Below, one piece after another: positions 1 through 37,631 of a stretch of 64,000 nucleotides of DNA. The stretch spans positions 53,628 to 117,627 of the forward strand of contig URHG01000001.1 of NCBI GenBank assembly GCA_900547555.1, given 5' to 3'. Made by a program: the position numbers and the translations under genes. Source of the DNA: an uncultured Porphyromonadaceae bacterium (lineage in GTDB: Bacteria; Bacteroidota; Bacteroidia; Bacteroidales; UBA11471). Position 1 is the first letter of the stretch; every line of letters starts with the position of its first letter. Under the pieces are notes generated by a model. It saw nothing but the letters and a program-made list of their open reading frames with translations. It was not told where the DNA came from and did no database searches.

Positions 1-1798
1 CAGCCGTTTGCGCACCGTAGTTGGTAGCCGTCGTCTGCTCGATTTGCAAGAATCCCGAAGCTACGATGTTATGTATCTCATTGAATGTCTGGTTATACAC
101 CAAGCGATTCTCGGTATAGAGATAAAGTTGCTCGTTCGAGGCATCGGAACTGCGGTTGTACCAGTCGTTGGCCAAATTGGGATCGCTCGTACTGATCCAA
201 GGCACACCCGTTACTTCGTTGGGAAGATACTTTTTCGTACGTTTGCTATCGGCGGTAAGAGCTACCGTACCGTAATAATTCAACATCGGCAATATCTGGT
301 AGTGAAGCTGGAAACTGAGACGGGTAGAGTACGAGTCAAGTCGGTTTACCGCTTCATTGACCATAGCGACCGGGTTGTAATTACGGTTATCGATAAAGGT
401 CTCTCCGAAATCTTCATACGGAGAGAAATAGGTATTGGTGCGGGCCGATCCGTCGGAGGTCATGAAGTAAGGACTTTCCTGAGGCATCTTATTGATGGCC
501 ATACCACGCGGATTGGAAGGTTCTTTATCGTTAACCTTTTCTGACCAATTGGAATTACGGATATTATACGTAAACGAGAACTCCGAAGTGATATCCAATT
601 TCTTGGAGAATCGGTAGTTCATATTGAAACGGGTCGAGAAACGTTGCACGTCGGCCCCGATCGTCGTACCGTTTTCTTTCAGATAACCCAAAGAGAGACG
701 ATAGGTAGCCTTGTCGCCACCACCCGACATAGAGAACGAATTATCGACCGTGTAACCGAGACGCGATACCTCATCGAGCCAGTCGGTATCGACATTGTAC
801 TCGTTGAAGAGCAACGACTGGGGATTGAAGTTGATCTCATCGCTATTCAAAAGATCCAAATATGTTTGGGCATTAGTGCTCGAATAGCCTAAGTCGTTGA
901 TCGAATTCCAAAGAGCATCTTGCATCAACGAGACATATTGCGCAGCATTCAAGAGCGGGTAAGTGTTCGCCTCTTTTTTCACCTCGGCACTGGTATTGAA
1001 AGTGAAAGAGATTTTACCCTTAGCACCTTTTTTGGTATTGATGACCAACACACCATTGGCACCTTTGGTACCCCACATGGCCGTAGCCTGAGCGTCCTTC
1101 AATACCTCGATCGACTCGATGTCGGCCGGAGATATATCAAGCAACTGGGAATAATCATCGGTCGAAGCCGAAGCGAAATCGAAATCGTCATCGATACTTA
1201 CCGGGAACGGAACACCATTGACAACGATCAAAGGATCGGCGTTACCATTAAGGGTCTGCGTACCACGAATACGAATGGTACTGTTCGAACCGGGATCGGC
1301 ACCCGTAACGATGTCGACATTGGAAAGGGCTCCTTGCAAGGCCTCGGCCACCGAGGTAACCGGAGCGGTTTCAAGGCCTTCCATGCTCATACGTTGCACG
1401 GCACCGAGCTCTTCACGAGGGGTAAGACCCATTTGGTTTCTCTCTACCCGTTTAGCCGAAACGCTGACTTCGTCGAGCTCGTGGCTATCTTCGGAAAGGG
1501 AGGCATTCAAGACCTTTTGTCCGGTATATTTTACGGTATAGGTCTGCATACCGATAAACGAGAAATTAATTACGAGATTTTGCTCGTCGGGTATTTTGAT
1601 ACGGTACTCGCCGTTGGCATCGACAAGCACGCTGGCCAAAGTACGTTCATCTTTGTTCTGCACAAAAACGCTGGCTCCGGCAAGAGGTTCGCCTGAGGCT
1701 TTCTCCAATACCTTACCGGTCAAAACCGTTTGCGCCGCCATAGCCTGAGAGACAACAAAAGCGACCAACAACAGGTATATTTTCCGTGTTATTTTCAT
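1..1798 (-). CDS. SusC/RagA-family TonB-dependent outer-membrane transporter, N-terminal ~599 codons (3' part lies beyond the left edge)
   Basis: Missing from the ORF track because the frame stays open to position 1. My translation of the minus strand from ATG 1798..1796 gives MKITRKIYLLLVAFVVSQAMAAQTVLTGKVLEKASGEPLAGASVFVQNKDERTL (signal peptide plus carboxypeptidase-regulatory-like domain). Plug-like IRIRGTQTLNGNADPLIVVNGVPF and IESIEVLKDAQATAMWGTKGANGVLVINTKKG follow. It starts 26 nt after the FAS1 gene stop. Confidence 0.9.
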   Translation of the reverse strand, partial: MKITRKIYLLLVAFVVSQAMAAQTVLTGKVLEKASGEPLAGASVFVQNKDERTLASVLVDANGEYRIKIPDEQNLVINFSFIGMQTYTVKYTGQKVLNASLSEDSHELDEVSVSAKRVERNQMGLTPREELGAVQRMSMEGLETAPVTSVAEALQGALSNVDIVTGADPGSNSTIRIRGTQTLNGNADPLIVVNGVPFPVSIDDDFDFASASTDDYSQLLDISPADIESIEVLKDAQATAMWGTKGANGVLVINTKKGAKGKISFTFNTSAEVKKEANTYPLLNAAQYVSLMQDALWNSINDLGYSSTNAQTYLDLLNSDEINFNPQSLLFNEYNVDTDWLDEVSRLGYTVDNSFSMSGGGDKATYRLSLGYLKENGTTIGADVQRFSTRFNMNYRFSKKLDITSEFSFTYNIRNSNWSEKVNDKEPSNPRGMAINKMPQESPYFMTSDGSARTNTYFSPYEDFGETFIDNRNYNPVAMVNEAVNRLDSYSTRLSFQLHYQILPMLNYYGTVALTADSKRTKKYLPNEVTGVPWISTSDPNLANDWYNRSSDASNEQLYLYTENRLVYNQTFNEIHNIVASGFLQIEQTTATNYGAQTA

Positions 1799-1823
1799 AG
1801 CGTGTATTTACTTGTTTATTATT

Positions 1824-14632: not shown

Positions 14633-17443
14633 TCAAAATTGATTTTTCAAATTTACCGGCACGAGATGTACGGGGCCTAAAAGACCGCTGGGAATAACTT
14701 CCCAATGACCGAACTTACCTTTCTTATACCCCAAATTATTGATATTGGCGTCTTTGAAGCGTCTCCATTCGATACCCCGACGATCGTATTCGGCAATACT
14801 ATTGGCCGGGAGATTGGTAACTTCTATATCGATCCGGTTTGTACCAGGACGAAGATAACGCTTTACCATCGTATAGAAAGGCACCGACCAAAGGGTATCT
14901 ACCACCGTACCGTTCACCGTAACACGAGCACTCTCCCGCACATCACCGAGATCGAGAATCCACTCATCGCATGGTATATCGGGTAAATCAAACGTAATGG
15001 AATAGGTTGCCGAACCCCGATTGACCGAAGCCTCGGGTATCGGAAGCGATGTCCACGAGCCAAGCGTATCGATCGTAAATGTTCCCGGTATGGCCGGTTC
15101 ACTTTCGGTAAAAGCCAATGACCACCCGTTATCGAGAGACAGGCTCACGGGTTGTTTCGTATAGTAAGGCCAAGCATCACCGGACACATTTTCATCGTAC
15201 ACACAAACGATAGCCGACTCTCCCGAACGCAACTGCAAATAATACTGTAATTTGCCATCGTGAAGACGTGTCCGGGCCATTCCCGAACGACCCGAAACCG
15301 GATCGTAAATAGCAACGGATTTTCCTGCGACCGCCGGAGTTATCCACCCCTCGACACCCTTATTTTGCAATGAAGCAATGAAATAGTGATGCCCCTTATC
15401 ATTTTCACGCCGGATATAATGCGCACCGTAACGGGTCTTCACATCTTCGGGTTCCACACCTGTCATTTCCAACACCTTTGCATAATCACAACCGGTAATG
15501 ATGCGCCCCTTGCCGTATTCCGACACTTGCTCGGCCGTAAAATCACCGGCATCGGGCAGGGTCGAAAGCTGCGTCTTAAATGCTTTTCGGCGTTTCTCGA
15601 CAGAAGCGAAGCCGGGAACATCTTGGGGATAATTATCCACAAATATCAATGTGGCCCCTTGTCGTGCCAACGCAAGGAGGTGTTTGAGGACATCATCGGG
15701 CATCATCTTGACGGCCGGCAATATAATGGCCTTATAATGAGTACCTCCCGTCGTTACCAGCTGTCCGTCGCGATATTTTGTTTTACGCAAAAAATCATCG
15801 GAAATATAATCGACATCATACCCCGAATTGGTAATCTGCGCAATCACGTCGATGAAATGAGGCGCACGCTTCGCCATTTTATGGATATCGAATGCAAGCC
15901 CGAGCGATCCTTGCTGTTCATACCAAATATCATACAAAGGCAAGTAGACGAGAAAGTCATTGTCGGGTTTTCCCATCTGCAAGAACGACTGGCAACGGGT
16001 GATATACGAGAACAATCCGGAGGCATCGCGCCATATCGTATTGGTCGGCGACATATTTATCGTCGCATAAAAGAGCCAGCCCGGCCACTCGGCATCACGA
16101 GGTGAATAGGGTGTCCCATGAAAAAACATGTGATTGACTCCCGCCGAGAACATGAGATCGAGATCGGGCTTACACTGCGACAATGATGTGCGGAAATGTT
16201 CGGTAAGCCATGTGAATGTCTCGGAAGATACATAAGTTTTTCCCGATATATGCGCCCCGGAAGAAGCATATTTGAGCATGGAAAAATCGGAGTCATTGTC
16301 TTTCTTGACCGAATCTCGGCGCAAACCTTTGATGCCGAAATCGGTAATACCGAAACCTTCACACTCGGGAATATCGACCATCGCATAAAGATCGATGAGA
16401 TTTCCGGGTGAACCATGCGCCTGATTACGTACAAGACTTTTGTGCTTATGCGCCCAGTCTTTCCATTGTTGCGTAAAATTTTCTTTCAACAATTCGGCAA
16501 TAGTTTCCCGATAATCAGTAATAAGGCGAGCCCGTATATCGCTTTTTTCGCCTGTCAGTTCCAGCAAATGATTTTCGAGTTTATACCCCCGACGACGGGC
16601 GAATTGCTCGAAAAAATCGGGAGTCCAATCGGCACCGTACACTTCATACGAGTCATTGAAAAAAGTCTCGGGTGCAGGAGCTCCGGAAGAGGCAAAAGCC
16701 CGATCGAAACGAGAAAAATAATTAGCTACCGCTTTCTTGGAGAAATGGTTCATCACATATCCTTCCCCACCGGGAGCCGCCCGTTTTACCTTTTGAAACG
16801 TTTTTCCCAAAAACGCCGCAACGAGTTTCCACTCCTTACCCTCGGGAGCCGTCCAGTTCAACTCTCCGGTTTCCTTATCGACACGGGAAGTAAGATTCAA
16901 AACTTTCCCGTCGGAAGAATAAGCCATCAGACGCAAAAGTTTAGCAACAGGTTTCTGTTTTTTATCGGTTACGACAACCGGTTCGGAAAGCCGACTACCT
17001 CCATCGAGCGTATATTTCAAAAAAATCACTTTGCTGGCGGCATCTTCGAGTGAAACCTCCGGACCACCGAACGGCCATCCAGTACCGTTATTCATATCGA
17101 TATCCAAGCCCAAACGTTTACCTTCCTCGCAAACAAACGAATACATCTGCATCCACCGGGGCGATAAATACTCTATGTCATTGGCTTCATTATTTTTTAC
17201 ACCGTAAATAGGTGTTATTTCAAGTGTTCCCAATCCGGTACGGGCATAATCGGTCATATTGGCCGTAAGGATGGCCGAGTCTACCGCACTGCCCAACCAC
17301 CACCAACGGGTACCGGGTTTTGCCTCGGTCGTCGCTTCGGGCCACGCCGGTGCCTGAGCCACCGCCACAGCCGCGAGACCCATGAACAACCCGCTGCAAA
17401 TCATGCGGGAAATATTCTGTCTGATTATATACATATTCTTCAT
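14633..17443 (-). CDS. GH106-like alpha-L-rhamnosidase
   Basis: 936 aa with a signal peptide. The N-terminal PGTRWWWLGSAV and NNGTGWPFGGPEV blocks are ones I associate with GH106 rhamnosidases. It starts 12 nt after the GH2 stop. Confidence 0.75.
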   Translation of the reverse strand: MKNMYIIRQNISRMICSGLFMGLAAVAVAQAPAWPEATTEAKPGTRWWWLGSAVDSAILTANMTDYARTGLGTLEITPIYGVKNNEANDIEYLSPRWMQMYSFVCEEGKRLGLDIDMNNGTGWPFGGPEVSLEDAASKVIFLKYTLDGGSRLSEPVVVTDKKQKPVAKLLRLMAYSSDGKVLNLTSRVDKETGELNWTAPEGKEWKLVAAFLGKTFQKVKRAAPGGEGYVMNHFSKKAVANYFSRFDRAFASSGAPAPETFFNDSYEVYGADWTPDFFEQFARRRGYKLENHLLELTGEKSDIRARLITDYRETIAELLKENFTQQWKDWAHKHKSLVRNQAHGSPGNLIDLYAMVDIPECEGFGITDFGIKGLRRDSVKKDNDSDFSMLKYASSGAHISGKTYVSSETFTWLTEHFRTSLSQCKPDLDLMFSAGVNHMFFHGTPYSPRDAEWPGWLFYATINMSPTNTIWRDASGLFSYITRCQSFLQMGKPDNDFLVYLPLYDIWYEQQGSLGLAFDIHKMAKRAPHFIDVIAQITNSGYDVDYISDDFLRKTKYRDGQLVTTGGTHYKAIILPAVKMMPDDVLKHLLALARQGATLIFVDNYPQDVPGFASVEKRRKAFKTQLSTLPDAGDFTAEQVSEYGKGRIITGCDYAKVLEMTGVEPEDVKTRYGAHYIRRENDKGHHYFIASLQNKGVEGWITPAVAGKSVAIYDPVSGRSGMARTRLHDGKLQYYLQLRSGESAIVCVYDENVSGDAWPYYTKQPVSLSLDNGWSLAFTESEPAIPGTFTIDTLGSWTSLPIPEASVNRGSATYSITFDLPDIPCDEWILDLGDVRESARVTVNGTVVDTLWSVPFYTMVKRYLRPGTNRIDIEVTNLPANSIAEYDRRGIEWRRFKDANINNLGYKKGKFGHWEVIPSGLLGPVHLVPVNLKNQF

Positions 17444-20338: not shown

Positions 20339-20393
20339 AACTAAAAATTCTATAATCTCCGTTCGGAACATCTCTCGGAAAAAGAGAATCAGC

Positions 20394-20401
20394 CAAAGAT
20401 A
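20394..20401 (-). promoter_or_regulatory. Candidate internal -7 box (TATCTTTG) upstream of GH2
   Basis: TAnnTTTG match 56 nt upstream of the trimmed GH2 ATG, in the 176-nt CE12-GH2 gap. Confidence 0.35.
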
Positions 20402-20514
20402 CGTTTTTTCTTTCAAAAGCACGATCCCTTCCATGCAAAAACAAGATACCCGAAACTGCAAATCCCGAATACCTTGATGCGAATCGTTCCCGACAAAAGT
20501 CCGTAGGAAAAAGG

Positions 20515-21312
20515 TTATTCGAGCAATTTCTTCAATTTACAACCTTTCAGTTGCACGATTTGTCCGGCAACAACCTCGGCGTTGATACGCGCACCTTTCT
20601 CCGAGGTATGCGTCCAGTCGGCATCGGTAAAGCAGGCCTTCACCGCCTCCTGTCCCATTTCGTCGTATATATCGGCGATCAACGTATTCAGGTCGATGCA
20701 GGGAACACCTTCTTCCTCGGCCACCCGGCGAGCCCATACGGCATGAGCCGTGTCGCGCATCACCTTCCCGTTTTTCCAGCGATTGCGAGGTATCAGCGTA
20801 CAAAGCACAGGCTGTGCACCTTTTGCACGAGCATCGTCGATATACTTACGCAAATAGGCTCCATAAGTCAAGACGGTCTCTTCCCGGCCGGTCATCTCCA
20901 CGACCCCAGTCGTATCCCGGTCGTCAACTCCTTTCAGCGAAGCCCGGGGACGATTTCCCGCAAAGAGTTCTCCCCCGTCGTTATGGCCGAATTGTATAAT
21001 GACATAATCTCCTTTCCGCAACGAATCGCACACGGAATCCCACCGACCTTCGGTGATGAACGTACGACTGCTGCGGCCTCCGATGGCCCGGTTGCGGACT
21101 TCGGCCTTCGTATCATCGAAATACTCGCCGATGAAGCTGCCCCAGCCCCACTGCCCCCGGTCGCCGCGTCCCTGACCGTTTTTCACGGTCGAGTCGCCGA
21201 TCACATAAACGAGCGTCTTTTTATCTTTCTTTTCTTTCCGGGCATACGCTTCGGACACGCAGAACGACTGCACCGCCACAAGAAGCCCCAAAATAAACGC
21301 AATTTTTTTCAT
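20515..21312 (-). CDS. SGNH/CE12-type rhamnogalacturonan acetylesterase
   Basis: Trimmed to MKKIAFILGLL (ATG at 21312). SGNH blocks are present: VYVIGDSTV (block I), GGRSSRTF (II), GHNDG (III) and DWTHTSEKG (V). Confidence 0.8.
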   Translation of the reverse strand: MKKIAFILGLLVAVQSFCVSEAYARKEKKDKKTLVYVIGDSTVKNGQGRGDRGQWGWGSFIGEYFDDTKAEVRNRAIGGRSSRTFITEGRWDSVCDSLRKGDYVIIQFGHNDGGELFAGNRPRASLKGVDDRDTTGVVEMTGREETVLTYGAYLRKYIDDARAKGAQPVLCTLIPRNRWKNGKVMRDTAHAVWARRVAEEEGVPCIDLNTLIADIYDEMGQEAVKACFTDADWTHTSEKGARINAEVVAGQIVQLKGCKLKKLLE

Positions 21313-21328
21313 ATCGATAAAATTACAC

Positions 21329-21358
21329 AAAAAGGATACCTTTCGGGGTATCCTTTTT
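21329..21358 (-). terminator. Terminator-like hairpin between the PL1 and CE12 genes
   Basis: GGATACC-TTTCGG-GGTATCC is flanked by A5/T5. On the minus strand the stem is followed by TTTTTGTGTAATTTT. It ends only ~17 nt upstream of the CE12 start codon. Confidence 0.6.
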
Positions 21359-21375: not shown

Positions 21376-24249
21376 TTAGTATTTCATCATACGGGCCGTA
21401 CGGGTCGTATCGTCGGCAATAACAACACAGTTATAAACACCGGCGGGCAGGTCTTCGAGACCTTTGACTTCGATCATACCGCCCGAAATGGTCAAATCGT
21501 TACTGTAAACAAGAGCACCCGACAGACTGTAAATCTCAACCTTAGCGGTTCCTATGCTCTGCGGGAGAGCCACCGTGAAGCAGTCTTTGAACGGATTTGG
21601 ATAAACAGCTACGTCTTCATTTTCCGAAGCGGTAACTTCTTCGATAGCCGTTACACCATGCTCGTACTTCGACTTGATTTCGAGTTCGGTGAGGGCTTCG
21701 TTGTAAAGCGTAACTTCATCGATAGATCCGATAAAGGGAGCATCGAAATTGATATTGACATTACCGATAACAAACGCTTCGTCTCCATCAATAGCACCGG
21801 TAGCATCACTGGCCGAGGCTTTGAGTTCACCGTCGATGTACAGAAGCAGTTTTTGATTCTCAACATCGCGCACGGCAACTACATGATGCCAGTTTCCGTC
21901 GAAATAAGAGGTTGCGGAAACCTCTGCCAAAGATTTGGTTACATCATCATCTACACCGAAATAAAGAACTCCTTTCTTATATTCGAGACCGAACCATTTA
22001 CCGGTATTTCCGTTGCTGCCCGATGCATGACTACCTTTGTGAAGGAGATAACGGCTCTGCGAGCTGTTACCGGCAGTAGACTTGAACCACAACTCATACG
22101 AGAAAGGTGCACTCTCAAATACGATTTCGTCGTACGAAGGAACGATCATACCGTCGGTCGTATTGGCAGCATCGAAAGATATGGCACCGTTGATTTTGCC
22201 TTCACCCCATACCGGAACATACGAACCGTAAGGAGTGGCATCATTGGCCATGATTTCTTCATCGGTAGGCGCATTTACAGCCATAGAACCCGATGTTTCG
22301 TCAAATGAGAAATAAGCGACTTTCGTACGCACGGGTTCTTGTCCGGTCGTGAAACTCCACACCTCTCCCTGCGTTCTGCCGTAAGTATTCTTCGCATCGA
22401 TTCTCCAATAATAGGTGGTATTCTGCTCTACGTCCATCGTATATGACTTACTACGTATCGTAGCTACGGAATCGAGCTGGTCGGGCGACGTTCCCACATA
22501 TACGTAGTAATAGGGACGGCCCGTTGTTTCGTTCGAGAATTTAAGCGTTACCGTCGTATATTCGGCAATCGTTTCACCATTAGCGGGAACAGGATCGGTC
22601 GAGAGGTCGGGTTCGCCCGGAGCACCTTTGGTGCGGAAAGAGAGCGTAGCGGGAAGCGACTCCATATCGCCGGTAAAGGTAGTCAAACGCAGCGTATAAT
22701 TTGTTTTCTCCGAGAGACCTTTTATCGTACAGGAAGTTGCATCGGTATTGATCGTATTCACGAGCTGATATTCTCCGCCCTCAGGCATCACTTCCACGCG
22801 GATTTTCGCTCCGGCAGCTTTTTCGTGGCACTCAAAAGCCACCGTAATACTGTCGGTACCCAACGACTTGGCAAGAATCTCTACCGGATACTTCAAGAAA
22901 GCAACAGGCGATGCAGGTATGCTGTTGATATAATTTTCGATATTCAGGTAACCATTGGGAGCCACCATCACGGCATCGGAAGCATCATTGGGATTCAATT
23001 CGTTAGCTTCTTCCCACCAATCGGGCATACCATCGTAATCGCTATCCACAGGCTTCGGGGCATTGTAGATATTTCCCACACCGTTTACCAATCCCAATAC
23101 TGATTCACTCGAAATAATCACGCCTTTATTTCCCAAAGAACGCAACTCATCGATGACGTATTCATCGACTTCATCCCGATCGGGCAAACAGGCACCGACA
23201 CTATCAACGACCCATTGATATGCCTCCTCGGCCGTCATCGACATCGAAGCAATAGGAGCATGAGGATGTTCCGAAGGATATTCTTCGCTTTGCAACAAGT
23301 CTTCAAACGAATCAACACGGGTCGCACGGGCGAAATCGTTCTCGTCCATATCACGACCGTTAAGGACACCATCCCTCGACATATCGGTTTTGTTTCCGCG
23401 CTGGTAAACAGTTGTCAACTGATTTCCAGAACCGACCCCATTTCCACCGGAATTCGGACCTTGGATAAAATAGTTAGACTGTACATCGGCCCAAATACGT
23501 CCTTCGGAATCACCACCGAGGTTGTAACCGCCACCGCTACCCCAGTTATACACCACATTGTTGATGTACTGGTTAAGACCTTTCACCTTATGGTTACGGG
23601 TATTATTATCGGCATAGAGATTCCGGTAAAGCGTTACCCCACCCACAGTATTGGTCGGTTGGCAAAGACCACCGGCCGAGTGAGGCAAAAGGCCTTGGCT
23701 CATAATGGTTTTTTGAATTGTGATATTTCCTACTCCACCGTTCTTACCATCGGAATTGATCGAGAAAGTCTCATCTTTTCCCCATGAAATGGAACAATGG
23801 TCAAATATCATATTGGAACCGTTGGCTATACCAGCGGCATCATTTTGTCCGCGACCACTCATTCCCATACGGATACGCAGATAACGGACGATAATATCGC
23901 TGGCTCCGGAAAACGAAGTGCGTTCTCCGTAAATGACAATACCACTACCGGGAGCCGTCTGCCCGGCAATTGTCAGATTCTTGGAAAACACAAGAGGACT
24001 TTTAATTCGAATTACACCTGCTACATCAAAAACAACAATGCGATTAGGTTGACTGACAGCATCACGTAAAGATCCCTTTCCCGAGTCATTGAGATTGGTT
24101 ACATGGTACACTGTCGGATTTTCTCCAGCGCGCGCACCTCGTGCAAAACGGCCGTAACCTTCCGCTCCCGGGAATGCAATCAGCTCATCGGCCACCGCCC
24201 CGGCAAGGCAAGCAAATGCCATACAAAATGTTAGTAAAATTCTTTTCAT
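21376..24249 (-). CDS. PL1-type pectate lyase with FN3-like and LamG/ConA-like modules and a T9SS C-terminal sorting domain
   Basis: 957 aa. The N-terminus AFPGAEGYGRFARGARAG..VYHVTNLNDSGKGSLRDAV..IAGQTAPG..VRYLRIRMG is pectate-lyase-like. A Ca-binding-like DSDYDGMPDWWE motif follows. The C-terminus VAVYPNPFKDCFTV...GVYNCVVIADD is a Por/T9SS tail. Confidence 0.8.
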   Translation of the reverse strand: MKRILLTFCMAFACLAGAVADELIAFPGAEGYGRFARGARAGENPTVYHVTNLNDSGKGSLRDAVSQPNRIVVFDVAGVIRIKSPLVFSKNLTIAGQTAPGSGIVIYGERTSFSGASDIIVRYLRIRMGMSGRGQNDAAGIANGSNMIFDHCSISWGKDETFSINSDGKNGGVGNITIQKTIMSQGLLPHSAGGLCQPTNTVGGVTLYRNLYADNNTRNHKVKGLNQYINNVVYNWGSGGGYNLGGDSEGRIWADVQSNYFIQGPNSGGNGVGSGNQLTTVYQRGNKTDMSRDGVLNGRDMDENDFARATRVDSFEDLLQSEEYPSEHPHAPIASMSMTAEEAYQWVVDSVGACLPDRDEVDEYVIDELRSLGNKGVIISSESVLGLVNGVGNIYNAPKPVDSDYDGMPDWWEEANELNPNDASDAVMVAPNGYLNIENYINSIPASPVAFLKYPVEILAKSLGTDSITVAFECHEKAAGAKIRVEVMPEGGEYQLVNTINTDATSCTIKGLSEKTNYTLRLTTFTGDMESLPATLSFRTKGAPGEPDLSTDPVPANGETIAEYTTVTLKFSNETTGRPYYYVYVGTSPDQLDSVATIRSKSYTMDVEQNTTYYWRIDAKNTYGRTQGEVWSFTTGQEPVRTKVAYFSFDETSGSMAVNAPTDEEIMANDATPYGSYVPVWGEGKINGAISFDAANTTDGMIVPSYDEIVFESAPFSYELWFKSTAGNSSQSRYLLHKGSHASGSNGNTGKWFGLEYKKGVLYFGVDDDVTKSLAEVSATSYFDGNWHHVVAVRDVENQKLLLYIDGELKASASDATGAIDGDEAFVIGNVNINFDAPFIGSIDEVTLYNEALTELEIKSKYEHGVTAIEEVTASENEDVAVYPNPFKDCFTVALPQSIGTAKVEIYSLSGALVYSNDLTISGGMIEVKGLEDLPAGVYNCVVIADDTTRTARMMKY

Positions 24250-24557
24250 GTGTATAAGTTATTTTAGGTTTATAACATCTCAAATACAAATAATCCCCGA
24301 CACTCTCCCTTTTTCCGGAGAAAATGTCCGATGAAGGCAATTCTTATGACGGATAAAATGAAAATTCAAAGGATTGTTTTCATGGTACATCAAAGAATAC
24401 GAGGCATTAGGGGTTACAAATAAACAAAATATTGCCTCTCGACTGACTGCAAATATTGATAGATAAACTTCCTTAAATGATTTTATCGAATTATCGAACC
24501 TTCTATTATTCCGAAATGTCGAGTATCGAAAAGCACAAACGAAACAAGTATTTTCAA

Positions 24558-25786
24558 GAGATTCCTCACATACGTTCGGAATGACGCGCATGTCATTTTG
24601 GCGACCGCAGAGAGGAAGAATCTCTTACCAAAGTACACGTCATTCTGAGGGGTATTGACCCCGAAGAATCTCGTTCATAAATGGATTGGGATTCCTCACA
24701 TGCGTTCGGAATGACATTTAGGTTACAGCCCTAAAAAGCATCCGTCATTCTGAATGAAACGAAGTGAAATGAAGAATCTCAACCAATAAAGAGTTGGGGC
24801 TTCCTCACACTCAGCCCTTCGGTTCGGAATGCACGTATGTCATTCTGAGACGCGAAGTGTCGAAGAATCTCCTGCCAAATAGGGCGTATGGTATGAGATC
24901 TCTCACATGCGTTCGAGATGACAGTAATGTCATTCTGACGACCGCAGGGAGGAAGAATCTCTTGGATAGGAACATTGAGGGAGAGATGCTACACTACCGT
25001 TCAGCACAACAAGGTATTCTTTTTGGGATTCCTCGCGTACGCTCGGAATGACATTTGGGTTGCCGTTCTCAAAGTATCTGTCATTCTGAATGGAACGAAG
25101 TGTAATGAAGAATCTCTACCAATAGAGCGTGAGAGATTCCTCGTCGGCCTTACGCCCTCGCTCGGAATGACATTCGACAGTCATACGGAGCAGTCGAAGT
25201 ATCTCCGACTCGTAACATTCTATCACTCTACGCGCAAATGCCAATTTCATGTAGGCGAAGGCGTGCCCGCATTTATCGGGCTGCCGGGAGCAAGGGAGAA
25301 GACGGAAAGAGGGCGAGGACTGTTTGAGCGGAGCGAGTTCCGCAGCACCCGTCGGCGACCGATGCGGAAGGCAGGAATACCCGATAACCGGCGGGCGACC
25401 TTTCTGGGTTACTTCTTTGCGGCGGGAAAGAAGTAACAGACAACTGTCATTCTGAACATAGCGTGAGCGGAGTGAAGAATCCCAAACAAAAAGCATGAGA
25501 TTCCTCACATGCGTTCGGAATGACATTTGGGTTGCCGTTCTCAAAGTATCTGTCATTCTGAATAGAACAAAGTGTAATGAAGAATCTCAACCAATAAAGA
25601 GTCAAGGATTCCTCACACTCAGCCTATCGGCTTCGGTTCGGAATGCACGTATGTCATTCTGACGACCGTAAGGGAGGAAGAATCTCTTGGATAGGAGCGT
25701 TGAGGGTGAGATGCTTCACTGCCGTTCAGCATGACAAGGTATTCTTTTTGGGATTCCTCAATGCGTTTGGAATGAAATCGGAATGA
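24558..25786. repeat. Array 1 of a REP/BIME-like imperfect-palindrome family (~20 copies, alternating orientation)
   Basis: The forward form is GAGATTCCTCACATGCGTTCGGAATGAC (24558-24585, 24688-24715, 25497-25524). The reverse form is GTCATTCTGA-N11-17-GAAGAATCTC (24592-24624, 24744-24780, 25080-25116, 25552-25588). There is no credible ORF. Confidence 0.9.
25228..25445 (+). repeat. ~220-bp structured repeat ('element B'), copy 1
   Basis: It aligns by eye with 37754-37980 and with the reverse complement of 31625-31852. It contains GCCCGC-AT-TTATCGGG ... CCCGATAA-N-GCGGGC long-range pairing and the hairpin GTTACTTCTTT-GCGGCGGG-AAAGAAGTAAC (25408-25437). The 5' ~40 nt are more diverged than in the other copies. 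Confidence 0.85.
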
Positions 25787-25794
25787 GAACAAAA

Positions 25795-25822
25795 AAGAGG
25801 GGCGCTTTAAAGTGCCCCTCTT
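25795..25822 (-). terminator. Terminator after the T9SS-cargo gene
   Basis: AAGAGGGGC-GCTTTAAAGT-GCCCCTCTT. On the minus strand TTTTTTG follows. Confidence 0.7.
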
Positions 25823-25845
25823 CTATATTATTAACAATCGTGAGA

Positions 25846-28155
25846 TTACTCAACGATGAGTTTTTGCGTATAAGCTTTGTCGGCCGTCGTTACGCGAACA
25901 TAATAGATACCGGCTTGCAAATCCGAAACATCGAGCGTCAAAGTCGATTCAGCGGTAGCAACCGATTTCACCAACTGAGCAGCCGAGTTGTACACAGCCA
26001 CATTTGCCACTTCACCGGCAGCTACGGCAATCGTAACGTTTCCACCCCGAGCAGGATTGGGATATACCTGCAAGTTGCTATTGTCGGCATCTACGCTTTC
26101 GATAGCATCGGGTTCTGCCTCACCATTACCGGCTTTCGTACATTTGGCCACCAACTTGTATTGAGCAGGAGCAATAACGGTCGTTACATTTTCGCCTTTG
26201 ATCGGATCATATTCCGTTTTGGTCTCAGCAGGAACTTTCACAGATTTCAATTCGAACGTTGCGCCATTGAAAGCATCGTCTACGATCAAATTGAAACAGG
26301 TCTCATCGGTTACGCCATCAACGTAGCTTCTGAGGGTATCAGCTTGCATGAGGACGATTTCATCGCCTTCGGCTACTGACCATTTGTCGCGCGGAGCAAG
26401 TTTGATGTTGATCTTTGCTTCTGTTCCTGCTTCGGTATCGCTGTAAACGCGGATTTCATTTTCAACCATTACTACGTCGTGTTTATCTTTGTCGATGATT
26501 TCGAACTCGATATTTGCACCGTTGTAGAGGAGCAAATTAGCGGCCGTACCGGCGGTTCTTTCGAAAATGGTATTTCCTTGTTGTTCCGTACTTACAGGTC
26601 CATTGCTTTTACCTGTTTTATAAGATATTTTAGCAAATGACGCATCAATCCGCAAGGTATCTACGGCATCGCTACCGGGCTGCATCGTACCATAGAGAGC
26701 GGTGTGGCCACCGATCGTTCCGAACCCGCCGATTGTTCCGGTCGGGCGACAAGTTACCGTATTGTTGCTCGACACTTTATTTTGTCCCGTAGCCGTCGTA
26801 TTTTGAGGATCGGGGTTATTGAAGAGCACGCGGCCTTCCCATACTTCTACACCCAAGAATATTTGATTTTCATTCGAAGTAATATAGTAGGTTCCTTTTC
26901 CTTCCTTGATAAGACCGACACCACATTCTCTATAAGGACCCCAACCCGTATCATTGGCACCTTTTACACTAGCTGTAAATACACCATCGAGATAACCATC
27001 TGCATCATCGCCGAAAAGAATTACCCCCTGAGGATTTGAAGCCTTATAATATCCTCTCATCGCAGAAGTCTTTTTCATATTTAAACTTTTCACATGCAAA
27101 AGAGCTACATTGGGAGCACCCCCAGCCGACTCAAATGCAATAGAAACGTCTTCACCTATCGTAACATCACTATTGGAAAGATCATAGAACAAACTATCGA
27201 TAAGATTTCCGTTTTTAGCTTTGTTCAACCACACATTGTAAAGCAAAGAGTCCCCCTCGGTTTTAGCATAAAATGCTTTCGAGGCAGCAGTTCCTTTTGC
27301 CGACTCCGCCGGGAAAATTATACCGCTAAAATCAGACTCGCTGTCATCAGATTTCAAAATATTGAATTTGCCAGTAAATCCCGAGAAATCGGCAGGATGA
27401 GTATTTTTTGAACCAGACAAGAATACACGTTCACCCCGAGAATAAACATTTATAGTACCGTTTCCGGTAACATAAATATTGGTATCACTCGTCATATAGG
27501 TATAACGAGAGGGATAAAGATTCCACGTAGAACCGTCGGTAATGTTGACATCGGCACCGAAAGCAGCATAGTCGCTGCCCATACTACCTAAATCGACAGT
27601 ACCCTCACCGTCAATAGTAACTTTCTTACCGAAAACAGTCGTAGCAATAGACGATTTCGACTTACGAGCTACCGTACCGCCTTTTATAACGGTTCCGCCG
27701 GGCAAGTTATTTACAACATCGGTGTAGAGCGTTCCGTCGCCAAACTTAATCAAAGCGGCATCGGGTGCTGCGGCAGCCGCATTGAAAGCTACCGTTTCCG
27801 ACTCGGGACTGAACGTATACGTAACTTTGGAGTTATCGACTTGGATTCCGCCGAGTTCCAATCCGGTTCCTACCGTAATCGTGGGAGAATCGGTATTCAT
27901 ACCGAAGTCGGGATTGGTGAGAACGTTATACACCTCGTCATTGAACAATGCGATATTGCCACTCACGAATGATTGAGAATTCGGATCATCGGGATTCTCA
28001 TCAACCCCGATCCAAGTCTGGAAAGTCGTGGTCCACGGGAACAGCAACCCTTCCGCGTCCATATCATTCACTGCTGCCCATTTCTGAGTAGTAGTTTGCG
28101 CAGACATACCTGCCGAAGCAAGAACAGCCGCTACTAAAAAAGTAATTTTCTTCAT
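25846..28155 (-). CDS. Secreted protein of unknown function with a T9SS C-terminal sorting domain (G/T/N/V-rich, possibly beta-helical)
   Basis: 769 aa with a signal peptide (MKKITFLVAAVLASAGMSAQ). The C-terminus LQVYPNPARGGNVTI...AGIYYVRVTTADKAYTQKLIVE is a Por/T9SS tail. I recognise no catalytic motif. It has its own terminator at 25795-25822. Confidence 0.7.
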   Translation of the reverse strand: MKKITFLVAAVLASAGMSAQTTTQKWAAVNDMDAEGLLFPWTTTFQTWIGVDENPDDPNSQSFVSGNIALFNDEVYNVLTNPDFGMNTDSPTITVGTGLELGGIQVDNSKVTYTFSPESETVAFNAAAAAPDAALIKFGDGTLYTDVVNNLPGGTVIKGGTVARKSKSSIATTVFGKKVTIDGEGTVDLGSMGSDYAAFGADVNITDGSTWNLYPSRYTYMTSDTNIYVTGNGTINVYSRGERVFLSGSKNTHPADFSGFTGKFNILKSDDSESDFSGIIFPAESAKGTAASKAFYAKTEGDSLLYNVWLNKAKNGNLIDSLFYDLSNSDVTIGEDVSIAFESAGGAPNVALLHVKSLNMKKTSAMRGYYKASNPQGVILFGDDADGYLDGVFTASVKGANDTGWGPYRECGVGLIKEGKGTYYITSNENQIFLGVEVWEGRVLFNNPDPQNTTATGQNKVSSNNTVTCRPTGTIGGFGTIGGHTALYGTMQPGSDAVDTLRIDASFAKISYKTGKSNGPVSTEQQGNTIFERTAGTAANLLLYNGANIEFEIIDKDKHDVVMVENEIRVYSDTEAGTEAKINIKLAPRDKWSVAEGDEIVLMQADTLRSYVDGVTDETCFNLIVDDAFNGATFELKSVKVPAETKTEYDPIKGENVTTVIAPAQYKLVAKCTKAGNGEAEPDAIESVDADNSNLQVYPNPARGGNVTIAVAAGEVANVAVYNSAAQLVKSVATAESTLTLDVSDLQAGIYYVRVTTADKAYTQKLIVE

Positions 28156-28234
28156 GATACTTTTGGTATTAGTTAAGTTATACTTGAATAAAAATATCTA
28201 TCAATATGATTTAGGTTTTTTCCAATAGGCAAAG

Positions 28235-28270
28235 AAAAGAGTTATTTCAGTGTGTTGAAATAACTCTTTT
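28235..28270. terminator. Bidirectional-looking terminator after GH105b
   Basis: AAAAGAGTTATTTCA-GTGTGT-TGAAATAACTCTTTT is a perfect 15-bp stem with A/T runs on both sides. Confidence 0.65.
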
Positions 28271-28329
28271 GATATTAAAACTGTTTTTTTTGGCAGTAGA
28301 CCCCTATTCCAAAAAAAATTTAGGATTTT

Positions 28330-29529
28330 TTACCGCTTGCGGGTGGGACGCGCCCCATGCGCGGCCTCGTATTTCTCGAGTTGTATGCAACCCATAATAA
28401 ACGGTCCGGTCGCTTTGGCGTCGTTATCGCGCATACGCTCGTGGATATAGTAATCGAACGAACCATCACGATACTTGCTGCCGCCCAATCCGCCCACGGC
28501 GCAACAACGGGTAAGCGTCCACGTCTTGTCGGGATTTTTCTTGAGCAACTCTTTGCGCAGCCCCTCGTAAGCCTTCTGCGCCACTCCGATATAGGAAGAG
28601 TCGATGTAACCTTTATTTACCGCCTTGGCGTAGGCATACATAAACTGCGACGTAACGGAAGCCTCGGGGAAATTGCCTTCACGGTCGATCTGGTCGAGAA
28701 CCTGATACCAAAGGCCGTCCTTGTCCTGATACTCGGGCAGCGTAACGGCCATGCCCTTGATTATCGTGATGAGATCGGCACGACGGGGGTGATTTTCGGG
28801 CACATAATCGAGCACATCGACCAGCGCCATGAACCACCAGCCCATGCTGCGTCCCCAGAAATTGGGCGAATGGCCGGTCGTAGGATCGGCCCAACGCTGA
28901 TTGCGGCTCTCGTCGTAAGCGTGGAAATAGAGCCCCGTGCGGTTGTCGAAGGTACGGCGGGCACAGATAAGGAACTGCTTCACGGCATCGTCGATCAACT
29001 CGGGCTTGTCGAAAGTCGCTCCGTAACGGGCCAGAAAAGGCGAAGCCATATAGAGGCCGTCGAGCCATATCTGGTAAGGATAGATGAGTTTATGCCAAAA
29101 CGCACCTTCATGGGTACGGGGCTGGCGTGCCAACTGACGGACAAGAACGTCCATCGCTTTTTTGTACTTGGGATCGCCCGTCTCGGCATAGACATCGAAA
29201 AGCACTTTCCCCGAGTTGATGAAATCGAGATTGTAATCGGCCATCTCATAGAGGTGGATTTCGCCCTTATCATTGATAAGGGTATCGGCCCACTCGGCCA
29301 CGTAATCGTAATACTTGCGGTCGCCGGTGTAATGCCACATGTCGAGCATGGCGCAACAGCCCACGCCCTGAGCATAACCGAAGAAGAGACGTTTACCGTG
29401 ATCGAGCTGCCAAGCCTCGGGTGCGCGCTTCATCTCCGACTCGGCAAACTCGACCGACATTTTCTGAGCCGAAAGGGCAAGCGAACATGCGCAACAGGCC
29501 GCAACGGCAAAAGAGGTTTTCCAATTCAT
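28330..29529 (-). CDS. GH105 unsaturated rhamnogalacturonyl hydrolase (YteR/YesR-like), copy b
   Basis: 399 aa with a signal peptide. HEGAFWHKLIYPYQIWLDGLYMASPF, FWGRSMGWW and SVTSQFMYAYAKA are typical GH105 blocks. Confidence 0.88.
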   Translation of the reverse strand: MNWKTSFAVAACCACSLALSAQKMSVEFAESEMKRAPEAWQLDHGKRLFFGYAQGVGCCAMLDMWHYTGDRKYYDYVAEWADTLINDKGEIHLYEMADYNLDFINSGKVLFDVYAETGDPKYKKAMDVLVRQLARQPRTHEGAFWHKLIYPYQIWLDGLYMASPFLARYGATFDKPELIDDAVKQFLICARRTFDNRTGLYFHAYDESRNQRWADPTTGHSPNFWGRSMGWWFMALVDVLDYVPENHPRRADLITIIKGMAVTLPEYQDKDGLWYQVLDQIDREGNFPEASVTSQFMYAYAKAVNKGYIDSSYIGVAQKAYEGLRKELLKKNPDKTWTLTRCCAVGGLGGSKYRDGSFDYYIHERMRDNDAKATGPFIMGCIQLEKYEAAHGARPTRKR

Positions 29530-29552: not shown

Positions 29553-31085
29553 TTACAATTTCCAGTTATCGGTACGGAACGGTGTCGCCGGCAATCCTTC
29601 CCGGTTGTAGAAATTGACCCGGAAAAACTTATCCCACCCGTAACGCACCGCCACGGGCGACGACACTCGGGGCGACGATACTTCGACCTTGTCGCCTCTG
29701 ATAACGGCCTCTGCCGGATAGAACACACCATCGTCGCCGGCTATGACAAAGCCTTTGAGGGGTTGCCCTTTGGAGTCGAGCCCCGACCCCGTATAATCGA
29801 ACGACAACTCGGCTACGCCTCCCTTCACCGACATGCTCTTATACACAGGTCCCATATACGGCACATCGATGCCGTAATCGTGCGACAAGGCCCAGTATGC
29901 GAGACGCTCTCCGGGAATGACTTTGTTGCGAGGGTGAATGTTGGTCGAGTCGCCCGCATCGGTAATAACAGCCATACCGGTATTTTTCACCGTCTGCCAT
30001 GTGCGCAGTTGCCCTTCGCGCAGGGTCGGCGATTGTTTGCGATAGGGCGCTATCTGCACGAAATAGAAAGGGAAATCGCCTTGTTTCCACTCGGTCCGCC
30101 AACTGCGGATAAGATTGGTAAACACCATCTGGTAATCGGCCGCCCGACTGTCGTTGCTCTCGCCCTGATACCAGATAACGCCTTTGATGGTATAAGGCAA
30201 TATGGGGTTGATCATGCCGTTCCAGAGGGTCGACATACGCAGATTGTCGTTGAGCTTCTTTGCTTTGGCGGGAGCTTTCAGTACGGTATCGGGATTGATG
30301 GCTTTGGCCGTTCTATAAGCGGCCATTTCCCGCTCATACCGCTTTTTCTCGGCCGGAGCATTCTCGATAATGCTTTTTTGCTCCGCCCGTAAATTGTCGT
30401 AGTAAACACCCTGCATGGCCTCTTTCTTGGTCCACGACTCGGCATGAGTGCCGCCCCACGTCGACTGTATAAGCCCTACGGGGCGGTGTATTTCATTATG
30501 TATCTTGCGGCCGAAAATAAATCCGACGGCCGAAAAACGGGCAGCGGTCGCCGGGGTACAAACTTCCCACACGCCGATGCAATCATCAGTGGGAGCATCG
30601 GGTGCCAACTGGTGTTCGACCCTGAAAAAACGGATCTCGGGATAGTCGGCGTTCCGCAACTCCTCCTTGACGGTGGTCATGGCGTTTTTCCACCGGCTGG
30701 TCGTATCGCGGTCTACGGGAAACTCCATATTGGATTGCCCCGAACAAAGCCACACTTCCCCGATAAGGACATTCTTTATCTCGACGGTATTACGACCTTT
30801 CACGGTCAGTGATACGGGATCGGACGAAGCGACCGGCGTAGCGACTTCGACTTGCCAACTGCTGTCGGCAGCGGCGACGGTCTTCTGTTTTTTGCGACTC
30901 CACGAAACAGAGACGGTGATTTTTTCACCGGGCGCGGCTTTTCCCCAAATACGGGCACGGGTATTCTGTTGCAACACCATATTATCGGACAAAACGGCCG
31001 GGAGTTTTACGTCGGCTTTTGCTCCCGAAAACGAAAGTAAAAAGAAAAACAGAGCGAGAGAAAATGTGATTGCAGGTGCTTTCAT
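29553..31085 (-). CDS. SASA-family (sialate O-acetylesterase-like) carbohydrate esterase
   Basis: 510 aa with a signal peptide. GEVWLCSGQSNMEF and GVIWYQGESN blocks are present. It is the first gene of a two-gene unit with GH105b (23-nt gap). Confidence 0.8.
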   Translation of the reverse strand: MKAPAITFSLALFFFLLSFSGAKADVKLPAVLSDNMVLQQNTRARIWGKAAPGEKITVSVSWSRKKQKTVAAADSSWQVEVATPVASSDPVSLTVKGRNTVEIKNVLIGEVWLCSGQSNMEFPVDRDTTSRWKNAMTTVKEELRNADYPEIRFFRVEHQLAPDAPTDDCIGVWEVCTPATAARFSAVGFIFGRKIHNEIHRPVGLIQSTWGGTHAESWTKKEAMQGVYYDNLRAEQKSIIENAPAEKKRYEREMAAYRTAKAINPDTVLKAPAKAKKLNDNLRMSTLWNGMINPILPYTIKGVIWYQGESNDSRAADYQMVFTNLIRSWRTEWKQGDFPFYFVQIAPYRKQSPTLREGQLRTWQTVKNTGMAVITDAGDSTNIHPRNKVIPGERLAYWALSHDYGIDVPYMGPVYKSMSVKGGVAELSFDYTGSGLDSKGQPLKGFVIAGDDGVFYPAEAVIRGDKVEVSSPRVSSPVAVRYGWDKFFRVNFYNREGLPATPFRTDNWKL

Positions 31086-31257: not shown

Positions 31258-32304
31258 GAGATTCTTCGGGGTTAACACCCCCTCAGAATGACACTCCTGT
31301 CATCTCGAACGAAAGTGAGAGATCTTATACGAAATGCACTATTTGGCAGGAGATTCTTCGACACTTCGCGTCTCAGAATGACATCACATTGCAGGGACAG
31401 TACCACATGTCAAAAGATTCTTCCTTCCTGCGGTCGACAGAATGACATACGTGTCATTCCGAACCGACGCCAAGCCGAGTGCCGTGCAGAACATTTCTGT
31501 TCATGCACAGCCGAGGCGCGAAGGAGGAAAACATAGTTAACCGAAGCGATAGGCTGAGTGTGAGGAATCCCCGACTCTCTATTGGTTGAGATTCTTCATT
31601 ACACTTCGTTTCATTCAGAATGACAGTTGTCTGTTACTTCTTTCCCGCCGCAAAGAAGTAACCAAGAAAGGTCGCCCGCTTGTTATCGGGTATTCCCGCC
31701 CTCTGCTTCGGTCGCTGTCGGGGGCTGCGGAACTCGCTCCGCTCAAACACTCCTCGCCCTCTTTCCGCCTTCTCCCTCGCTCCCGGCAGCCCGATAAATG
31801 CGGACATGCTTGTGCTCCATGCAATTGGCGTTTGTTCGTAAAGCGACAAGGCATCACCGGTCGGAGGTGTTCCTCTGTTACTCAAATGTCATTTCGAACC
31901 GAGGTCGAAGACCGAGTGTGAGGAATCCCAATCTATTTATGTGGGGTATAGATTCTTCATTTCGCTTGCGCTGCATTCAGAATGATAGCGTTTTGGTGAT
32001 AGCCTAATGTCATTCCGAACGCATGTGAGGAATCTCATGCCATACACGCACTTCGTAGGAGATTCTTCGACGCTCCGCATCTCAGAATGACATCGTACTG
32101 GTAGGGCAGTACTGTATGGAAAGAGAATCTTCACTTCACTGACGTTCCGTTCAGAATGACAATTGTACTGCAACGGCAGCATTGTGTGGCAAGGGATTCT
32201 TCCTCCCTGCGGTTGTCAGAATGACATACGTTTTTAGGGTAAGATTTTTCACTATTGTTCAGAATGACAATTATGTGGTATGAGGGAATGCGCTTCGTTC
32301 GGAA
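31258..32304. repeat. Array 2 of the same palindrome family (~13 copies), overall inverted relative to arrays 1, 3 and 4
   Basis: Examples are GAGATTCTTCGGGGTTAACACCCCCTCAGAATGAC starting at 31258 and, further on, GTCATTCCGAACGCATGTGAGGAATCTC. The array ends 9 nt from the queF stop codon. Confidence 0.9.
31625..31852 (-). repeat. Element B, copy 2 (reverse orientation)
   Basis: The reverse complement reads ...GCCTTGTCGCTTTACGAACAAACGCCAATTGCATGG...GTCCGCATTTATCGGG...CCCGATAACAAGCGGGCG...GGTTACTTCTTTGCGGCGGGAAAGAAGTAACAGACAACT. Confidence 0.88.
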
Positions 32305-37615: not shown

Positions 37616-37631
37616 ATGGCCTGTTTTATAA

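Follow-up and report, generated by a model that had tools for sequence, protein, structure and literature searches.

CBM89, a family of carbohydrate-binding modules (CBMs), is known from a single characterised protein, the xylan-binding appendage of a GH10 xylanase. Here we describe a free-standing relative of it, encoded at 25846..28155 on the minus strand of a 64,000-nucleotide stretch of DNA from an uncultured Porphyromonadaceae bacterium (contig URHG01000001.1, positions 53,628 to 117,627; the whole stretch is called the window below). The gene lies in a polysaccharide utilization locus (PUL) for pectin and rhamnogalacturonan-I (RG-I), beside a gene for a protein with a lyase-like domain, and its 769-aa product ends in a C-terminal sorting domain (CTD) of the type IX secretion system (T9SS). 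A first-pass annotation, made from the sequence alone, had proposed it as the ‘missing’ lyase of the locus or as a binder. We lean, by a modest degree, towards a beta-helix protein of the CBM89 superfamily that binds polysaccharide, is not catalytic and stands free on the cell surface beside a PL1_2-like lyase.

CapCBM89 (7JVI), the founder of family CBM89 in CAZy, comes from a capybara-gut Bacteroidaceae metagenome-assembled genome (MAG), where it makes up the N-terminal 45 kDa of a GH10 xylanase; it binds xylan and arabinoxylan and has the form of a right-handed parallel beta-helix of 14 turns (Cabral et al. 2022, PMC8810776). The protein described here shares with it a homologous module of ~420 residues, the same right-handed parallel beta-helix and the same residues at the positions equivalent to Y62, E82 and D344. 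Both belong to gut Bacteroidales and to loci for plant polysaccharides, but they are only ~19-29% identical. Unlike CapCBM89, whose gene lies in a xylan cluster, the present protein is encoded in an RG-I/pectin PUL, is free-standing, and has a T9SS tail, an extra N-terminal extension of ~155 residues and three insertions.

Beta-helix proteins are also described from pectin PULs of B. thetaiotaomicron. According to a preprint, the surface glycan-binding proteins (SGBPs) BT1030 and BT1026 of the rhamnogalacturonan-II (RG-II) PUL bind the homogalacturonan (HG) backbone, and BT4112 of the HG PUL is a predicted HG binder with a beta-helix (bioRxiv 10.64898/2026.03.13.711244). The preprint also places BT1030 in membrane fractions, describes it as extracellular, states that its deletion impairs growth on RG-II, and reports no surface endo-cleavage of RG-II (bioRxiv 10.64898/2026.03.13.711244). 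The three proteins match the role proposed here in being non-catalytic beta-helix proteins of pectin PULs, with a CBM89-like fold by the authors’ description, and differ in having no paired surface PL1-like lyase. Characterised Bacteroides SGBPs typically carry a surface lipoprotein anchor, which is expected for BT1030, BT1026 and BT4112 as well, unlike the T9SS CTD of the present protein. The present gene shares with SGBP genes a PUL with a SusC-like open reading frame (ORF), SusC/SusD being found in loci of relatives, but its product has a T9SS CTD in place of the lipoprotein anchor.

The lyases of PL1 subfamily 2 (PfPL1 9BUJ, PelZ, BT4115/4116/4119) likewise combine a parallel beta-helix with a pectin context. 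They have no detectable sequence similarity to the helix protein, and it is the neighbour encoded at 21376-24249 that belongs with them. The long right-handed beta-helix and its G-x-G turn motifs also recall autotransporter passengers (EspP, IgA1 protease, EspC) and PATR. The helix protein differs from these in having no beta-barrel translocator, in its predicted secretion by the T9SS, in low TM-scores of 0.11-0.29 and in giving no PATR hit. A literature search on T9SS cargo in pectin PULs found nothing describing a cassette of a helix protein and a PL1-like protein, and no paper came to light in which CBM89 relatives are reported as mostly free-standing T9SS proteins that often have a PL1-like lyase as partner in pectin PULs.

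A CBM89-like beta-helix with a T9SS sorting domain

The ORF (769 aa plus stop codon, ATG start) is a real gene, as the ORF listing, its homologs and its substitution pattern show. A collection of 5.8 billion proteins contains 42 homologs, all of them unnamed or ‘hypothetical’. Pfam and NCBIfam recognise only the CTD. A single-sequence search of PDB sequences (phmmer) gave 7jvi_A (‘Beta-helix domain’, E=1.2e-7) as the sole match outside the tail, and a profile of 25 homologs matched the same chain at E=1.2e-27, with query residues 184-604 on chain residues 28-391. Comparison with nine GH10-fused CBM89 proteins by hhalign gave a probability of 100% and E=4.7e-51 over 422 columns, in which target residues 175-688 span the whole CBM89 module, and the GH10-fused family member P0067 matched the window in tblastn with 29% identity over 466 aa (E=7e-23).

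From the alignment, AlphaFold2 (AF2) gave a good model (pLDDT 84.3, pTM 0.78), an all-beta structure whose strands follow a solenoid pattern. When this model was compared with the PDB using Foldseek, 7jvi_A came first (E=1.2e-15, TM 0.80 normalised to 7jvi), followed by the passenger helices of autotransporters (EspP, IgA1 protease, EspC) and by CTD structures, which bears out the parallel beta-helix supposed in the first-pass annotation. The three peptides quoted there are present at residues 153, 179 and 227, and in the AF2 model they form strand-turn-strand junctions of successive beta-helix coils. The richness in G, T, N and V noted at the same time is real (A 9.9, T 9.8, G 9.6, V 8.5 and N 6.9 %), but the G-x-G motif is not enriched: it occurs 9 times against 6.9 +/- 2.3 in shuffled sequences and was rejected as a statistical signal.

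No PL or GH28 structure was found among the top 50 Foldseek matches in the PDB. The models Pec_lyase_C, Pectate_lyase_3, Beta_helix, Glyco_hydro_28 and NosD did not match the target at E<=10, and no PL, GH28 or Beta_helix Pfam model matched any of the 25 homologs at E<=1. Beyond the CTD, a Pfam scan of these homologs gave only two weak PATR hits, and none in the target itself. Against the BFVD viral structures, Foldseek returned CTD and Ig-like matches only, with no tailspike or depolymerase. By sequence, predicted fold and conserved residues the target belongs to the CBM89 superfamily, and by the same sequence and model comparisons it lies outside every pectinase family. The suggestion of a missing lyase thus found no counterpart in profile or fold matches, and that of a binder fits a homolog of a non-catalytic xylan-binding protein with the same binding residues. 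In the CAZy sense a CBM is a module within a carbohydrate-active enzyme; the only other recognised domain of the target is the T9SS CTD, which leaves it outside that definition.

Taken together, the profile, fold, hhalign and tblastn evidence gives an architecture of signal peptide, N-terminal coils, CBM89 module, linker and CTD. The signal peptide (residues 1-19; 28099..28155, minus strand) was recognised by inspection: the N-terminus, MKKITFLVAAVLASAGMSA followed by QTT, has the look of a signal peptidase I substrate, with a basic n-region, a hydrophobic core and an A-x-A-like site (MSA before Q). The predicted cleavage after A19 would leave Q20 at the N-terminus. Both A19 and Q20 are invariant across the 25 homologs, and residues 2-17 form a low-confidence helix in the AF2 model. 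The protein lacks a lipobox Cys, its cysteines being found only at positions 411, 469, 620 and 672.

The N-terminal extension (residues ~20-174; 27634..28098, minus strand) consists, judging from the AF2 strand pattern and the family alignment, of further beta-helix coils. The stand-alone T9SS members have it in common, and the GH10-fused CBM89 proteins lack it; groups A, B, C and E conserve W41, F71, K137, G141 and G160, positions at which the GH10 group has gaps. The CBM89-homologous module (residues ~175-688; 26092..27633, minus strand) comprises the beta-helix core and a C-terminal beta-sheet subdomain, with clade-specific insertions at about 285-322, 505-535 and 612-630.

A low-confidence linker (residues 684-693) precedes the type-A T9SS CTD (residues 697-769; 25849..26067, minus strand). 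Residues 697-768 match Por_Secre_tail PF18962 (E=3.4e-14, 53 bits against a cut-off of 27), the tail matches TIGR04183 (E=1.2e-15, 57 bits against a cut-off of 23), and in Foldseek it resembles the CTDs of mirolase and other T9SS substrates. The target thus has the features of a T9SS type-A cargo protein, a sorting domain and a Sec signal peptide, the latter by inspection. With the exact ORF, the two tail models and the invariant A19 and Q20, the 769-aa protein with a signal peptide and a T9SS tail is as first described. A second CTD protein adjoins the target, and the contig of one distant relative carries a gldB gene.

Putative glycan-binding residues

In CapCBM89, the substitutions Y62A and E82A affected the binding of xylan, stability was lost in the E247A and E282A variants, and D344 ligates a structural Ca2+ (PMC8810776). 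Because the profile alignment has these tyrosine and glutamate residues as Y60 and E80, the published numbering equals the 7jvi chain index + 2. In the alignments to 7jvi, Y62, E82, E247 and D344 (the Ca site) correspond to the same residues in the target, namely Y218, E242, E440 and D560, and E282 corresponds to P471 and is not conserved. A putative glycan-binding patch, equivalent to region I of CapCBM89, extends from R217-Y218 to E242-R243 (27427..27507, minus strand). The 25-residue spacing and the DSSP strand pattern suggest that Y218 and E242-R243 are stacked on adjacent coils of the modelled helix.

Residue counts across the family were taken from a MAFFT alignment of 67 members. Position 218 is Tyr in 59/66 sequences, R243 is invariant in all aligned members, and R217 is Arg in groups C, D and F and in 17/22 orthologs. 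The residue at position 242 is Glu or Asp in 20/22 orthologs, Glu in 21/22 distant stand-alone members and Glu in 9/9 GH10 fusions; it is replaced in a clade of 35%-identical paralogs and in fusions to leucine-rich repeats (LRR). Position 560 is Asp in 60/64 sequences of the other groups. A second polar patch found family-wide comprises Y369-Y370-K371-x-S373 and D386. Another set of residues is invariant only in the target clade, the 35% paralogs and the LRR fusions: K137, Y144, D146, R164, D224, Y306, D384, K398, C469, R470 and R533.

Conserved pairing with a PL1-like gene in pectin/RG-I loci

Downstream of the target, at 21376..24249 on the minus strand, lies the gene of a 957-aa T9SS cargo protein composed of a PL1 subfamily-2-like domain (~20-390), fn3, Laminin_G_3 and a T9SS CTD. 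Residues 20-265 match PDB chain 9buj_A at E=1.4e-29; the match includes a DHCS-SW-DE block conserved between PfPL1 and the 957-aa protein, and the first Arg of the PfPL1 RTPR motif aligns with an Arg (RNHK). Residues 1-383 match NCBIfam PelZ at E=1.9e-30, which is under the equivalog cut-off, so the protein is a relative of PelZ and not PelZ itself. By these sequence matches it carries a PL1_2-like pectate lyase domain. Pfam finds only fn3, Laminin_G_3 and Por_Secre_tail in it and misses the lyase-like domain, a blind spot that may explain why a lyase had appeared to be missing.

PfPL1 (9BUJ) is a pectin-active lyase and the first structure of PL1 subfamily 2, and characterised PL1_2 enzymes act on HG-type substrates, not on RG-I (PMC11229556). 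With such a domain next door, the unsaturated products on which GH105 acts have a source, and the apparent paradox of GH105 enzymes in a locus without a lyase disappears. The earlier statement that the locus has no RG lyase holds to the extent that no canonical family (PL4, PL9, PL11, PL26) was detected in the window, but it overlooked this neighbour.

The gene order around the target is conserved. Immediately upstream is a GH105 gene (Glyco_hydro_88; 28330-29529, minus strand), assigned by Pfam (E=1.1e-110) and synteny, preceded by a gene for a SASA-type esterase (29553-31085, minus strand). Beyond the 957-aa gene follow genes for a GDSL/SGNH esterase (20515-21330), a GH2 (17456-20461) and a GH106 enzyme (14633-17443), all on the minus strand. 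The target gene is kept in the pectin/RG-I loci of six related species-level genomes and of relatives with 24-27% identity. The closest species-level genome is Candidatus Caccoplasma intestinavium, with a target of 84% identity; the others are Coprobacter, Porphyromonadaceae and Bacteroidales MAGs. The block SASA-GH105-target-957aa-GDSL-GH2-GH106 is present in every ortholog locus with enough flanking sequence (L001, L002, L003, L008, L009, L010 and L015) and holds in all five related species-level genomes with contig beyond the target (L008-L010, L015 and L003, GCA_949286195). L004 starts at the target and covers only the downstream part; L011 and L012 end at it and cover only the upstream SASA and GH105 genes.

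The PL1-like gene directly follows the helix gene in every ortholog locus and in three distant loci. GH105 adjoins the target in all orthologous loci and in the distant locus L025, so that the co-occurrence across genomes put forward as a check on the first annotation is observed. Of the distant stand-alone members with readable loci, most belong to pectin/RG-I PULs, and three members have a T9SS-displayed PL1-like lyase as their direct partner. These three (P0049, P0063 and P0054) each lie 120-230 bp upstream of a gene for a 940-975-aa fn3/LamG/CTD protein, and in all three distant loci with a readable downstream gene a helix/CTD gene is found directly upstream of such a PL1-like/fn3/LamG/CTD gene. 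Compared with the window, the distant helix proteins are 24-27% and the PL1-like parts 47-57% identical. Beyond the partner are a GDSL esterase (2/3 loci), a fasciclin protein and SusC, with SusD visible in one locus, and GH28 and hybrid two-component system (HTCS) or AraC regulators are close by. Among the other distant members, P0048 is flanked by GH105 and by GH2-GH106-GH28-RhaB, and P0059 lies beside a GDSL esterase and a pair formed by a fasciclin protein and an unknown protein of ~700 aa.

The remainder of the locus in the window, all on the minus strand, contains RhaB, RhaA, RhaT and RhaD (9701-14418), a second GH105 (8359-9672) and a GH28 gene (6847-8286), and ends in the 5' part of a gene for a SusC-like TonB-dependent receptor (1..1823), which runs off the window. 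This open frame of at least 602 aa, starting MKITRKIYLL..., was assigned from its N-terminal sequence character and synteny. Since a SusC-like receptor gene is present, we regard the locus as a PUL, and by its gene content it is a pectin/RG-I PUL.

The target is flanked by terminator-like hairpins, each followed by a U-rich tract on the coding strand. The upstream one, between the target and GH105 (28232..28270, minus strand), has a 15-bp stem (dG -16.3 kcal/mol, z -6.35). The downstream one, found by the terminator scan (25795..25822, minus strand), is GC-rich and begins 24 nt past the target stop codon (dG -21.6 kcal/mol, z -5.5). The hairpins predicted on both sides of the gene are thus well supported by their dG, z and U-tracts. 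An isolated transcription unit, proposed on this basis, is plausible in the window, with its repeat-filled spacer of 1.6 kb, but does not extend to the distant relatives, whose helix genes are only 120-230 bp from the lyase-like gene. A sigma-70 promoter scan, in any case unsuited to Bacteroidota, gave no more sites than shuffled sequence, and Rfam gave no match on 24000-28400.

Sequence divergence of the helix gene

The ratio of nonsynonymous to synonymous divergence (dN/dS) of the target was 0.27 against L008, 0.24 against L001 and 0.16 against L010. In the same three comparisons it was 0.09-0.15 for the PL1-like partner and 0.02-0.09 for the flanking SASA, GH105, SGNH and GH2 genes. The target is under purifying selection. 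Together with the PL1-like gene, to a lesser degree, it appears as a fast-evolving island in an otherwise conserved PUL.

Divergence is also uneven along the gene. Against L008, residues 152-251 are 96-98% identical, with dS about 0-0.05, and residues 302-409 are 56-58% identical, with dS 1.9-2.9, the flanking genes having dS 0.26-0.31. The CTD is 100% identical in L008 and L001 despite the diverged body. Because synonymous divergence itself is mosaic within the gene, these data suggest an exchange of segments between alleles of an exposed protein by intragenic recombination, with the export signal held constant. Such a pattern is more in keeping with a surface binder or antigen than with an enzyme under tight constraint, but is not decisive.

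The wider family

When 1.84 billion representatives were searched exhaustively with HMMER, 124 proteins reached E<=1e-10, many of them by way of the CTD only. The family set considered here has 82 sequences that match >=300 helix positions, of which 42 come from the target’s 90%-identity clusters and the rest are 50%-identity representatives. It contains 62 stand-alone CTD proteins, 7 GH10 fusions and 13 other architectures, and this distribution suggests that enzyme fusion is a minority form of CBM89 relatives, most of which are free-standing and T9SS-tailed. Partners other than GH10 include BspA-type LRR arrays (P0044, P0046), CBM4_9 (P0062) and a DUF6383 tail (P0068). As the helix is fused elsewhere to enzymes, CBMs and adhesin repeats, the family follows the pattern of an accessory binding module. 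In public records, the members go by generic labels only: ‘T9SS C-terminal target domain-containing protein’ in Bacteroides nordii, ‘autotransporter-associated beta strand repeat-containing protein’ and ‘hypothetical protein’.

P0044 and P0046 are giant proteins of 1631-1677 aa, in which N-terminal BspA-type LRR arrays and Big_5 domains accompany the same beta-helix. In Candidatus Caccoplasma merdavium, a member of the genus closest to the window, an 811-aa protein (P0068/P0332) has a beta-helix that ends in DUF6383 and lacks a type-A CTD.

Proposed role and alternative explanations

We hypothesize the following role for the helix protein. The signal peptide, as read from the sequence, would take it across the inner membrane by Sec. 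T9SS cargo proteins lose their CTD on export and become attached to the surface; by analogy with cargo of Porphyromonas gingivalis, the type-A CTD would direct translocation by the T9SS and be removed, and the protein would be attached to the outer surface. There, the R217-Y218/E242-R243 patch, and probably also the Y369-Y370-K371-S373 patch, would bind plant-wall polysaccharide. Homology and context point to the pectic backbone (HG/RG-I) degraded by the PUL as the likeliest ligand. The PL1_2-like lyase, itself displayed by the T9SS, would cut the captured pectin into unsaturated oligosaccharides, which would pass through SusC/D to the two GH105 enzymes, GH28, GH106, GH2 and the esterases in periplasm and cytoplasm, and released rhamnose would enter the RhaTABD pathway. 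The helix protein would then be the T9SS-anchored counterpart of a lipoprotein SGBP, or a ‘split’ version of the CBM89-GH10 arrangement. If it does bind pectin, the ligand range of the CBM89 fold would be extended, T9SS-bearing gut Bacteroidales would prove to replace lipoprotein SGBPs with CTD-anchored beta-helix binders, and thousands of entries named ‘hypothetical’ or ‘T9SS C-terminal target domain-containing’ would gain an annotation.

Several observations weigh against this role. The sole characterised relative, CapCBM89, binds xylan and arabinoxylan and not pectin, so pectin binding by the stand-alone members is a prediction by analogy, as is the surface attachment of the target. The Y/E/R patch is no guide to ligand specificity, because it is found family-wide whatever the context, and it may be partly structural. 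The distant RG-I locus L025 has a helix protein without an adjacent PL1-like gene. The 35%-identical paralogs, which lack the Glu, are encoded after OmpA/PD40 and GT2 genes in a housekeeping neighbourhood, so the CBM89-like fold is not tied to pectin. Among the scanned ORFs of the window (1824-41299), none was identified as PorU/V/K/L/M/N or Sov, which bears on the surface anchoring. Finally, clades A, B and E alone have a set of invariant charged residues (K137, D146, R164, D224, D384, K398, R470 and R533), which are candidates for a catalytic site.

Seven of these charged residues, D146, D224, D384, K137, R164, K398 and R470, are among the grounds for the view that the target is an enzyme, a new beta-helix RG-I lyase or hydrolase on a CBM89 scaffold, which we hold to be quite improbable. 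PL1, PL3, PL9 and GH28 do use a beta-helix, the window has two GH105 genes and no detected canonical RG lyase, and the characterised PL1_2 enzymes are specific for HG-type substrates and not for RG-I (PMC11229556). The same charged residues are, however, common to the paralogs in housekeeping context and to the LRR-adhesin fusions. In addition, no PL, GH or CE beta-helix family matched the 25 members at E<=1, and the nearest folds after CBM89 are autotransporter passengers, with no PL or GH28 in the top 50. For CapCBM89, no catalytic residues or topology of GH28, GH91, PL6 or CE8 were found by its authors, who judged it non-catalytic (PMC8810776). The dN/dS of the target is 3-10 times that of the locus enzymes, and a lyase-like domain is already present next door. 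There is likewise only a slim chance, in our judgement, that the stand-alone T9SS branch as a whole, with its added N-terminal coils and an invariant Asp/Lys/Arg set of its own, is a new catalytic family, in which an RG-I backbone lyase or hydrolase feeds both GH105 enzymes and the PL1_2-like neighbour serves HG only. A milder version is that the helix protein and the lyase may be an obligate two-protein surface machine anchored by the T9SS, with the helix diversified by intragenic recombination.

A general surface adhesin or scaffold, placed in the locus by co-regulation and with a ligand other than pectin, is unlikely but has a real minority chance. Its ligand could be a different plant-wall polymer, for example xylan, a host or microbial surface, or the PL1/LamG partner itself. 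Autotransporter adhesin and protease passengers are the nearest folds after CBM89, relatives are fused to BspA-type LRR arrays, paralogs are found outside CAZyme loci, xylan is the only measured ligand in the family, and mosaic hypervariability is typical of adhesins and surface antigens. Against this, the target stays adjacent to GH105 and the PL1-like gene from 84% down to 24% identity and across different PUL layouts, and the CBM89 binding residues are kept in the clades from pectin loci but not in the housekeeping paralogs. Because such persistent adjacency is hard to explain otherwise, we favour for the helix protein a role in pectin/RG-I use, in which its ligand, its lack of catalysis, its surface location and its cooperation with the lyase would be as outlined above.

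Other genes and repeats of the window

The first-pass annotation had regarded the target as the only unexplained protein of the locus. This was not so, as a 718-aa ORF and most of an 813-aa fasciclin protein are also without assignment. The 718-aa lipoprotein-like ORF (4316-6472, minus strand) has no Pfam, NCBIfam or PDB sequence match, yet >8,000 homologs, 66-70% identical, occur across Bacteroidota. An AF2 model of moderate quality (pLDDT 68.8, pTM 0.75) combines a beta-sandwich with an (alpha/alpha)6 barrel and most resembles enzymes of GH65, GH95 and GH139 (E down to 6e-16). The model suggests that it probably represents an uncharacterised glycosidase family of RG-I PULs. As a candidate for the missing lyase it was rejected, its predicted fold being GH65/GH95/GH139-like.

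In the 813-aa protein (1824-4265, minus strand), a single fasciclin domain is accompanied by ~700 residues without assignment. The distant PULs L027-L029 likewise have a gene for a fasciclin protein (~730-760 aa) ahead of the SusC-like gene, and on account of this shared position the fasciclin protein may be a further surface component with a binding role. Of these PULs only L027 shows SusD, and in L029 no Pfam hit is recorded for the gene that follows the fasciclin gene. The 718-aa ORF travels with the fasciclin protein, and the pair is seen in L026 too.

By tblastn, no second family copy or remnant was found in the window, only CTD cross-hits to the tail of the neighbour. In the related genomes L005-L007, L013 and L014, the 35% paralog directly follows the OmpA/PD40 and GT2 genes. 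The matching site of the window (37100-38400, beside GT2 at 38406-39311 and OmpA/PD40 at 39323-41299) contains repeat elements only.

A dispersed short palindromic intergenic repeat has the core GTCATTCYGARCG, paired with GAGGAATCYC / GAGATTCTTC. It has 22 matches against 0.28 expected, and no Rfam match. The sites are at 24550-25770, and also at 31280-32270, 37980-38270 and 43720. The repeats fill the 1.6 kb that separate the target from the lyase-like gene, a spacer of only 0.5-0.9 kb in the orthologous loci, and they give rise to spurious ORFs on both strands.

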